DNA from: a virus
Taxonomy: Duplodnaviria; Caudoviricetes
Reading direction: 5' to 3' (one strand)
Length of the DNA: 64,000 bases
IMG/VR virus record: IMGVR_UViG_3300005259_000074
Coordinates: 128,001-192,000 of that record
Below the pieces are notes generated by a model that saw only the letters and a program-made list of their open reading frames with translations, was not told where the DNA came from and made no database searches. Positions 43,997 to 46,080 of this stretch are shown here, one piece after another. Both the position numbers and the translations under genes were made by a program. Position 1 is the first letter of the stretch. Every line of letters starts with the position of its first letter.

Positions 43997-44070
43997 TGGT
44001 ACTCCTTGAGGGTTCGAAACCTCGACCTCTTCCATGTCACGGAAGTGCTCTACAACTGAGCTAAAGGAGC
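43997..44070 (-). tRNA. tRNA-Val(GAC)
   Basis: CTTCC-GT-GAC-AT-GGAAG; CCA; T-arm one nt short. Confidence 0.85.
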
Positions 44071-44501
44071 ATGAGATCGTTCTTGACTGTCCTTCTGATG
44101 TTCTTCCTTATCAGCATGATCATCTTACCTAGTACGTTCTTCCCAGTGCCTTTGCACTGGCTGCAATAACATACTCCCCAGCAGCGGTCGTGCCACGTGT
44201 TGCCTTCTTCGAGGTACTGATCGCCTGTGTCTAGCAACTTCTGCCTCAACACTGGGTCTCTGAACTTGTAGACCAGAAGTCGGTACATCACTCGGTACTT
44301 CTTGACTTCCCAGTCTGGAACCATTGAACAGACTTGACCTGCTCTCTTGGCTTGCCCTGGAGATGGGAGGTGAGCGATGTACTTCCTAGTCGAGGGACTA
44401 GATGCTTTCGCAGCTTGGTAGTAGTGCTCGATAGTCTTTCCGTTCGGGAACTTCGAAAAATTGGAGAGCCAACGAGTGTCGCCGCGAAATTCCTTGATCA
44501 T
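44061..44501 (-). CDS. NADAR (YbiA-like) family protein
   Basis: WLSNF, EHYYQAAK, KFRDP.LRQKLL.TG and EGNTWHDRCWG motifs; ATG at 44501 with GAGGA SD; stop lies inside tRNA-Val(GAC). Confidence 0.85.
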   Translation of the reverse strand: MIKEFRGDTRWLSNFSKFPNGKTIEHYYQAAKASSPSTRKYIAHLPSPGQAKRAGQVCSMVPDWEVKKYRVMYRLLVYKFRDPVLRQKLLDTGDQYLEEGNTWHDRCWGVCYCSQCKGTGKNVLGKMIMLIRKNIRRTVKNDLMLL

Positions 44502-44608
44502 CTCATCCTCTTCGTTTGAATTTTCCCGAGCTCCTTCGCGTCTATCCGGTCCTGGCAGGCGGCGACGTGTAGTGCCGCTCTTCGAGTCGAAGAAGGGACC
44601 CTCGAGAA

Positions 44609-44682
44609 TGGAGCACTGTGGGAATTCTGACATCCCAACTGCAACTTGGGAAGTTGCGGTCTTTCCTTTAGACTAACAGTGC
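44609..44682 (-). tRNA. tRNA-Gly(CCC)
   Basis: GCAAC-TT-CCC-AA-GTTGC; CCA; T-loop GTCAGAA. Confidence 0.85.
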
Positions 44683-45393: not shown

Positions 45394-45469
45394 TGGAGCC
45401 TACGGGCAAGGATTTGAACCGCCATCCATCGGGTACAGACCGATGATTCTACCTTTGAACTACGCAGGC
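45394..45469 (-). tRNA. tRNA-Thr(TGT), C33 variant
   Basis: ATCGG-TC-TGT-AC-CCGAT; two-nt bulge in the T-stem; CCA. Confidence 0.8.
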
Positions 45470-45480
45470 ATGAAAAACTG

Positions 45481-45562
45481 TAACAGAGGTGGAGAGTTGA
45501 ACCCACAATGCGTTTCCGCCTGGGTTATGAGCCCAGTTAGCCTACCGAGGCTCGTCTCTGTA
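45481..45562 (-). tRNA. Initiator-like tRNA-Met(CAT) with long variable arm
   Basis: CTGGG-CT-CAT-AA-CCCAG (three G-C pairs), U1:U72 mismatch, V-arm GCG-GAAA-CGC; no CCA. Confidence 0.7.
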
Positions 45563-45565
45563 ATC

Positions 45566-45654
45566 TGGTGGAGAGGGAACGATTCGAACGTCCGACACAG
45601 AGCCCTAATTCAAACATCAGTTGGCTCCTGCTCTACCGCTGAGCTACCTACTCC
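45566..45654 (-). tRNA. tRNA-like RNA with extended anticodon arm (20-nt loop region); identity unknown
   Basis: Canonical D-arm, T-arm and CCA; anticodon stem GGAGC/GCTCT encloses CAACTGATGTTTGAATTAGG. Confidence 0.7.
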
Positions 45655-45671
45655 ATTATTTCTATGAAGAG

Positions 45672-45745
45672 CTCCTGTGGCATGGCTCGAACATGCGACT
45701 TGGAGATTAACAATCTCCCGTTCATACCGACTGAACTACACAGGA
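45672..45745 (-). tRNA. tRNA-Asn(GTT) copy 1, inside a 21-bp perfect inverted repeat
   Basis: GGAGA-TT-GTT-AA-TCTCC; G73; no CCA. Confidence 0.9.
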
Positions 45746-45845: not shown

Positions 45846-45976
45846 TTAGACTGGTCGCTCTTCCGCTGAGCTATCGTGTACATTCTACTTCGTTAGCTGG
45901 ACTCAGTAGAAGTAGGTCCTCCGCGTGCACTCATCAGACCACTCACGAGTCGGATTTGAACCGACGTCTTCCAGTT
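45846..45976 (-). ncRNA. Circularly permuted tRNA-like module P3
   Basis: 3' half 45976-45941 precedes 5' half 45880-45846; ACCAG/CTGGA and TACACGA/TCGTGAG pairings; 60-nt insert closing the acceptor stem. Confidence 0.75.
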
Positions 45977-46000
45977 GATGGTGTCTCTAGGGCACCTTAA

Positions 46001-46080
46001 TGAGTGCGAGTGTTCTACCATTAAACTACCAGCAAGGTATTTCACTCGCCAGCTTGGAATCGAACCAAGACCTCTCGCTT
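46001..46080 (-). ncRNA. Circularly permuted tRNA-like module P2
   Basis: 3' half 46080-46045, 9-nt linker TGAAATACC, 5' half 46035-46001; CTCGC/GCGAG and TTGCTGG/CTGGCGA pairings. Confidence 0.8.

Follow-up and report, generated by a model that had tools for sequence, protein, structure and literature searches.

We describe an 89-nt gene in an uncultured, T4-like phage that has the complete body of a tRNA and, in place of the usual anticodon arm, an arm in which a second hairpin is set on top of the anticodon stem. We lean towards the view that its product is a selected, non-decoding tRNA look-alike, in which the tRNA body acts as a natural scaffold for the extra hairpin. The gene lies on the minus strand at positions 45566–45654 of the 64,000-nt stretch analysed here (the window), which corresponds to bases 128001–192000 of a virus record of 262,470 bp. 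This 262-kb genome encodes a T4-type baseplate wedge protein together with other phage genes. ARAGORN and the Rfam tRNA family both detect the gene, the former with the same ends, and a homologue that is 95.5% identical is found at 3270–3357 of a separate contig, L016.

The Rfam tRNA model (RF00005) covers 45569–45653 with a score of 35.4 bits against a gathering score of 29, and the copy in L016 scores 35.5 bits. Its alignment takes in the acceptor stem, D arm, T arm, variable loop and discriminator; a stretch of 19 nt in the anticodon loop appears in it as an insertion. Residues are numbered here from the 5′ G at 45654. The D arm (45630–45644) is GCUC/AGCGGUA/GAGC, with a 4-bp stem and a 7-nt loop containing GG; the T arm (45577–45593) is GGACG/UUCGAAU/CGUUC and canonical, as is the 5-nt variable loop; and the discriminator A with an encoded CCA occupies 45566–45569 (the copy in L016 ends in CCG). 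Both the sequence and the Rfam alignment therefore bear out the original prediction of a canonical D arm, T arm and CCA at these positions on the minus strand. The nucleotides that make up the tRNA elbow are complete (U8, A14, G18G19 and a UUCRAAU T loop). The 5′ strand of the acceptor stem, GGAG-U-AGG (45647–45654), is identical in the two phages and forms seven Watson–Crick pairs with CCUCUCC (45570–45576) only if U5 (45650) is bulged out. This is the register chosen in the minimum free energy folds of both copies, whereas the Rfam register, which lacks the bulge, leaves two mismatches in the stem. Judged from its sequence, the body is a complete class-I tRNA body with a CCA end that is either encoded or could be added. 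ARAGORN labels the gene tRNA-Ile(GAU). We rejected this label, because the fold behind it is distorted: it has mismatches in the anticodon stem, makes up a variable arm and passes over the evident D arm. Through wrong gene-finder labels of this kind, large phages are credited with more tRNAs than they have.

The anticodon arm (45599–45628) is 30 nt long compared with the normal 17 nt, an excess of 13 nt. It begins with a proximal 6-bp helix, GGAGCC/GGCUCU (residues 27–32 with 51–56; 45623–45628 with 45599–45604), continues through a two-residue bulge, A33 and A34 (45621–45622), that is invariant in L016, and is closed by a distal hairpin, CUGAU/GUUUGA/AUUAG (45605–45620), in which residues 35–39 pair with 46–50 around a loop of residues 40–45. 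The equivalent hairpin in L016 is CUGA/UUUUGAU/UUAG. The distal helix thus has 4–5 bp, and its loop has 6 nt (or 8 nt) in the window copy and 7 nt in L016. Folded alone, the 30-nt arm has a free energy of −11.6 kcal/mol, which only 2 of 200 shuffled sequences equalled; the z-score relative to the shuffles is −3.4 and has the same value for the arm in L016. The fold is the one that had been proposed initially, down to the bulge, the distal loop and the 13 extra nucleotides. With a total of 10–11 bp and a bulge, the arm does not conform to a stem of 5 bp (6 bp at most) closing a 7-nt loop with U33.

The gene is part of one of two tRNA arrays in the phage, which together comprise 29 ARAGORN calls and several further Rfam matches. 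Its own array contains tRNAs for codons with A or G as first base, plus Phe, and most tRNAs of the second array are for codons that begin with C, three tRNA-Gln genes being among them. Many tRNAs of the phage are without the canonical UUC of the T loop. Upstream of the doubled-arm gene, a tRNA-Asn(GUU) (45671–45745, minus strand) ends 16 nt before it, and the flanks of this Asn gene pair. Downstream, a non-canonical CAU tRNA of 80 nt (45482–45561, minus strand) starts only 4 nt after it. Further tRNA-like pieces, in the permuted order of Y RNAs, lie within a few hundred bases upstream. One of these (45947–46077, minus strand) has its T arm, a closed acceptor-like hairpin and its D arm permuted, and a GCGAG/CUCGC stem closes the whole; it resembles a Y-RNA-like tRNA domain, with a weak match of 18 bits to RF02553. 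Because of the neighbouring CAU tRNA and these permuted pieces, we count the doubled-arm RNA as one member of a group of non-canonical tRNA-shaped RNAs in the array. A protein with a NADAR domain (a family that processes ADP-ribose; Pfam E = 5e-20) is also encoded inside the array, at 44061–44633 on the minus strand. Antisense to the CAU tRNA and the doubled-arm gene there is an open reading frame of 74 residues (45443–45667, plus strand), which is almost certainly spurious, since the related contig has a tRNA-Asp inserted at that place. A scan for promoters and terminators around the gene was uninformative.

A search with the NADAR gene found one close relative, L016, a 10.7-kb metagenomic phage contig from JGI that carries the same tRNA array and whose NADAR protein is 92% identical to that of the window phage. 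The two copies of the doubled-arm gene differ by deletion of G40 in L016, by A46 to U, by U56 to C, which converts the G27·U56 pair into G–C, by one G to A in the T loop, and by the CCG at the 3′ end. The AA bulge, both helices of the arm and the bulged U5 are all kept. The acceptor and T-arm half is the best conserved part of the molecule and the distal loop the least conserved. Between the two arrays, bona fide tRNAs are 89–100% identical, and the aligned flanking segments, which are rearranged, are 72–89% identical. Gene order around the doubled-arm gene also differs, two Asn genes having been replaced and one Asp gene inserted in L016, so that a normal tRNA-Asp sits between the doubled-arm gene and the CAU tRNA. 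The replacement upstream is a single 87-nt tRNA-Asn(GUU) (L016:3175–3261; Rfam 48.7 bits) with what seems to be a long, class-II-like variable arm, and just upstream of the array L016 has a TnpB/Cas12f1-like_TNB gene (L016:240–1424) with no counterpart in the window. The chance of finding five or fewer differences in 89 nt is ~1e-4 at a neutral divergence of 20% and 0.06 at 11%.

Since the doubled arm is kept both in L016 and in contigs from a public sequencing run, it is not an artefact of assembly, which had been named as one way in which the original observation might fail. The matching contigs come from a single DNA run and have the gene in its L016 form, including the 1-nt deletion; this run may represent the same sample as L016. 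No RNA run was listed among the public runs containing the sequence. The close identity of the two copies, set against the lower identity of the flanks and the exchange of neighbours, indicates from comparison of the sequences that the gene is a real genetic unit and that it is probably under purifying selection. The family consists of these two closely related sequences, between which there is no double compensatory change and hence no true covariation.

Searches for further homologues were made at several levels. In GenBank phages, megablast and blastn matched nothing beyond generic D arms. Exact and gapped patterns found nothing relevant in IMG/VR, the 13 matches of one pattern being unrelated odd tRNAs, and a gapped pattern run over metagenome contigs picked up ordinary tRNA-Phe and tRNA-Arg genes that share the proximal stem, as well as chance matches, none with an extended arm. 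Of two patterns run over species genomes, one gave nothing and the other a chance T-arm match in a tRNA-Arg of Novosphingobium. A model of the family (R1) detected only an ordinary tRNA-Met in 25 related IMG/VR records, whose baseplate proteins are 30–52% identical, and no paralogue anywhere in the phage itself. Neighbours of NADAR genes in other contigs belonged to different phages in which the array is absent, and a 130-residue protein encoded within the array has its sole detected relative in L016. In unrelated IMG/VR phages we noted tRNA-like genes that have the same D arm and whose D and T arms lie ~20 nt further apart than normal (L008:959–1027, L009:8638–8706, L014:1371–1439, L010:1–69 and L006:2959–3028); a group of four among them is near-identical across contigs. 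We found no description in the literature of natural tRNAs with a doubled anticodon arm.

The distance from anticodon to CCA end is fixed in tRNAs. In the doubled-arm RNA, the tip of the arm lies ~5–6 bp and a bulge beyond the position required of an anticodon and so cannot pair with a codon; on the established geometry of tRNA and ribosome, the reading of codons is almost certainly excluded. The anticodon stem is consistently 5 bp long, and the active exceptions, tRNA-Sec, tRNA-Pyl and mitochondrial tRNA-Ser(UCN), have stems of 6 bp or with a small break (PMC7609411). They gain one base pair and still decode, whereas the RNA described here gains 5–6 pairs and a bulge. The idea of a working tRNA that decodes Gln codons through UUG at the tip of the long arm draws on L016, where the loop at the tip has the correct 7 nt and contains U33, UUG and A37, and we give it practically no credence. 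The arm is about twice the length allowed by the ribosome and by all known active tRNAs (PMC7609411), the loop in the window copy is of the wrong size, the acceptor end (A73, G1–C72, A3–U70) is unlike that of E. coli tRNA-Gln, and the phage already has its three tRNA-Gln genes. The original prediction had left the choice between a tRNA containing a micro-intron and a mimic that does not decode, predicted to be chargeable. A non-decoding mimic is favoured here: the gene shows the conservation of real tRNAs, the elbow is complete, and no active tRNA is known with an arm nearly as long.

An intron would be another way in which a decoding tRNA might be obtained. A protein endonuclease would remove ~12–13 nt and RtcB or a second ligase would reseal the product. 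Archaeal tRNA introns are 11–129 nt long, a range that includes the 13 extra nucleotides (PMC4090602), and 'enigmatic' tRNA introns have been reported in Lak megaphages (PMC6784885). We enumerated all single contiguous deletions between A26 and the T stem and looked for those that restore a 5-bp stem, one mismatch being allowed, and a loop of 7 nt in which residue 33 is U and residue 37 a purine. None does so in the window copy, whatever its length or position. In L016 a single 12-nt excision, with ambiguous boundaries, gives the loop CUUUAGG with anticodon UUA. This is about the chance level in such a U-rich stretch; it puts G37 after A36, whereas anticodons ending in A36 normally have A37; and A46 of the window copy abolishes it. 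In archaea, splicing is signalled by a bulge–helix–bulge, in which a 3-nt bulge lies on either side of a 4-bp helix (PMC4090602), and this motif is absent from the doubled-arm RNA, where one 2-nt bulge is followed by a helix of 4–5 bp and then by the terminal loop. ARAGORN in intron mode gave no intron model for the gene, Rfam placed no intron family there, and a self-splicing intron is excluded because no ribozyme fits into an insert of 13 nt (a group I core needs ~200 nt or more).

An RNA ligase and an endonuclease had been suggested as genes to look for, and only the ligase was found. RtcB (G000:C1:25895–27004), which joins RNA with 2′,3′-cyclic phosphate ends, adjoins an Rnl-type RNA ligase (PF09414, with the OB-fold N-terminus of PHA02142) on the same strand, the pair spanning G000:C1:24879–27076 (L002:485–2682), and a nucleotidyltransferase of the CCA-adding type is encoded at C1:1475–1834; all of these lie outside the window. 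RNA ligases such as RtcB and Rnl are common tRNA-repair genes of phages and are not specific to splicing. No splicing endonuclease of the EndA type (PF01974) was detected in the 262-kb phage with a search whose controls matched in four archaea, and to our knowledge bacteria do not have an enzyme of this type. Taken together, we regard removal of an intron as very unlikely, and the micro-intron half of the original prediction is not upheld.

The tip of the arm has a specific likeness. In L016 the distal loop UUUUGAU, on a 4-bp stem CUGA/UUAG, is identical to the anticodon loop of E. coli tRNA-Gln(UUG) (glnW). The distal 17 nt match the anticodon arms of the phage tRNA-Gln(UUG) and tRNA-Gln(CUG) at 12 of 17 positions, compared with a mean of 6.9 over the 49 arms of both phages, and one Glu(UUC) arm of L016 matches at 13 of 17. 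A genome-wide search with a 15-mer, allowing up to three mismatches, returned eight places where 6–7 were expected by chance, and two of the eight are the two Gln anticodon arms, matched in register. A repeated palindromic element was rejected as the source, as the insert is unique in the phage genome. The proximal stem and variable loop resemble those of bacterial tRNA-Phe and tRNA-Arg genes. The simplest origin that the sequences suggest is the insertion of a Gln- or Glu-type anticodon stem–loop, with two additional nucleotides, into the loop of another tRNA. By the same comparison, the window copy has since gained the loop G and changed position 46: with its extra G40, and A in place of U at 46, the tip there is a 5-bp stem with a 6-nt loop, which is not the exact Gln loop.

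This likeness raises the possibility that the RNA is a bait. It would display a host-type tRNA-Gln(UUG) stem–loop on a tRNA scaffold and soak up an anticodon nuclease or another defence protein, while the phage tRNA-Gln(UUG) (G000:C1:254950–255021, L001), whose anticodon loop is UUUUGGA (G37, A38) as opposed to the E. coli-type UUUUGAU, would keep translation going. tRNAs are known targets of defence nucleases, and the known tactics against defence by tRNA cleavage include nuclease-resistant phage tRNAs and the repair of tRNAs by ligases. The idea is attractive because the tip copies a Gln stem–loop, because of this targeting and because the phage invests in tRNA repair. It is weakened because the loop differs between the two copies and is no longer of the exact Gln type in the window, and the match of the Glu(UUC) arm, which is as good as those of the Gln arms, also speaks against it. 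We consider it an unlikely, though specific, guess, much less certain than the general reading of the RNA as non-decoding.

The main rivals to that general reading are a decaying pseudogene and a processing signal. A small insertion or duplication in an anticodon loop may have killed a tRNA gene that is now in neutral decay, and it would fit with this that an indel and a substitution separate the distal loops of the two phages, that the acceptor stem has a bulge, that the gene is found in two close relatives only and that phage tRNA arrays turn over fast. Neutral decay sits less easily with only five differences in 89 nt next to local flanks that have diverged by 20–28%, with the nucleotides for tertiary contacts and both helices of the long arm being intact in both copies, and with retention of the gene as a discrete unit despite the exchange of its neighbours; the insertion is also not a repeated element of the genome. 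A dead gene therefore appears unlikely to us. We think it more doubtful still that the RNA is mainly tRNA-shaped punctuation, which would direct RNase P and 3′ processing so as to free neighbouring RNAs from an operon transcript. The unusual neighbours at distances of 4 and 16 nt, that is, the 80-nt CAU tRNA and the Asn gene with pairing flanks, and the better conservation of the acceptor and T-arm half could be read in this way. These neighbours, however, have tRNA-like ends of their own and need no dedicated spacer, in L016 the normal tRNA-Asp intervenes between the gene and the CAU tRNA, and the conservation of the long arm would be left without an explanation.

In the reading that we favour, that of a non-decoding look-alike, the RNA would be transcribed as part of the minus-strand tRNA array and excised by the tRNA-processing enzymes of the host, with RNase P acting at the 5′ end and trimming or CCA addition at the 3′ end. 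The intact elbow would stabilise it, and the long arm would present the Gln(UUG)-like stem–loop beyond the reach of the ribosome, where it might divert, as bait or competitor, a protein that recognises this stem–loop, for example an anticodon nuclease or a modification enzyme of the host. A point against this reading is the bulged U in the acceptor stem, which could impair processing or charging.

With the canonical class-I tRNA (RF00005), the RNA shares the acceptor stem, D arm, T arm, variable loop, discriminator and CCA, and its score lies above the threshold of the family. It differs in its 30-nt arm of two stacked helices with an AA bulge, in the bulged U of the acceptor stem and in having no usable anticodon at the right distance. 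It passes the family score and fails in the defining feature of the anticodon arm, and is thus a tRNA derivative and not a tRNA. It has a structural parallel that is man-made. Ponchon and Dardel reportedly engineered a 'tRNA scaffold' in which a tRNA, complete in other respects, carries a foreign hairpin on its anticodon stem, the product being processed and stabilised by the cell like a tRNA. The phage RNA has the same arrangement but is natural and phage-encoded, its insert is only 13 nt and its processing and stability are presumed. The introns of archaea with their bulge–helix–bulge motif and the Lak introns likewise add nucleotides of archaeal-intron size to the anticodon arm, and the phage encodes RtcB, a ligase of the splicing type; the differences are the lack of the motif, of an endonuclease in the phage and of an arm-restoring excision in the window copy (PMC4090602; PMC6784885).

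Two kinds of non-tRNA RNA also invite comparison. The species 1 and 2 RNAs of phage T4 (rnaC, 139 nt, and rnaD, 119 nt) are stable RNAs encoded in the T4 tRNA cluster and annotated as having no known function. What they share with the doubled-arm RNA is the setting only: model R1 matched tRNA-Thr and tRNA-Pro in T4, not rnaC or rnaD, and we rejected homology in view of the lack of detectable similarity. The doubled-arm RNA is much closer to a true tRNA than they are. Y RNAs of the YrlA type (RF02553) are non-coding RNAs that mimic tRNA and occur in phages as well, but the RNA described here is not permuted. Identity with a Y RNA was rejected, the match reaching 20 bits where the threshold is 69 and spanning two adjacent genes, and no Ro60/TROVE domain being found in the phage. 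In kind, the doubled-arm RNA fits with the tRNA-like non-coding RNAs of phages.

Clusters of tRNA genes in phages are usually read as a supply of codon-reading capacity or as spare parts against nucleases. That several RNAs of this cluster keep the shape of a tRNA without decoding suggests that the tRNA fold serves phages more widely, as a stable and self-processing vehicle for other functions of small RNAs. If it is true that the Gln-like tip acts as bait, this would be a new form of counter-defence against tRNA-cleaving systems, an RNA decoy built from a tRNA.
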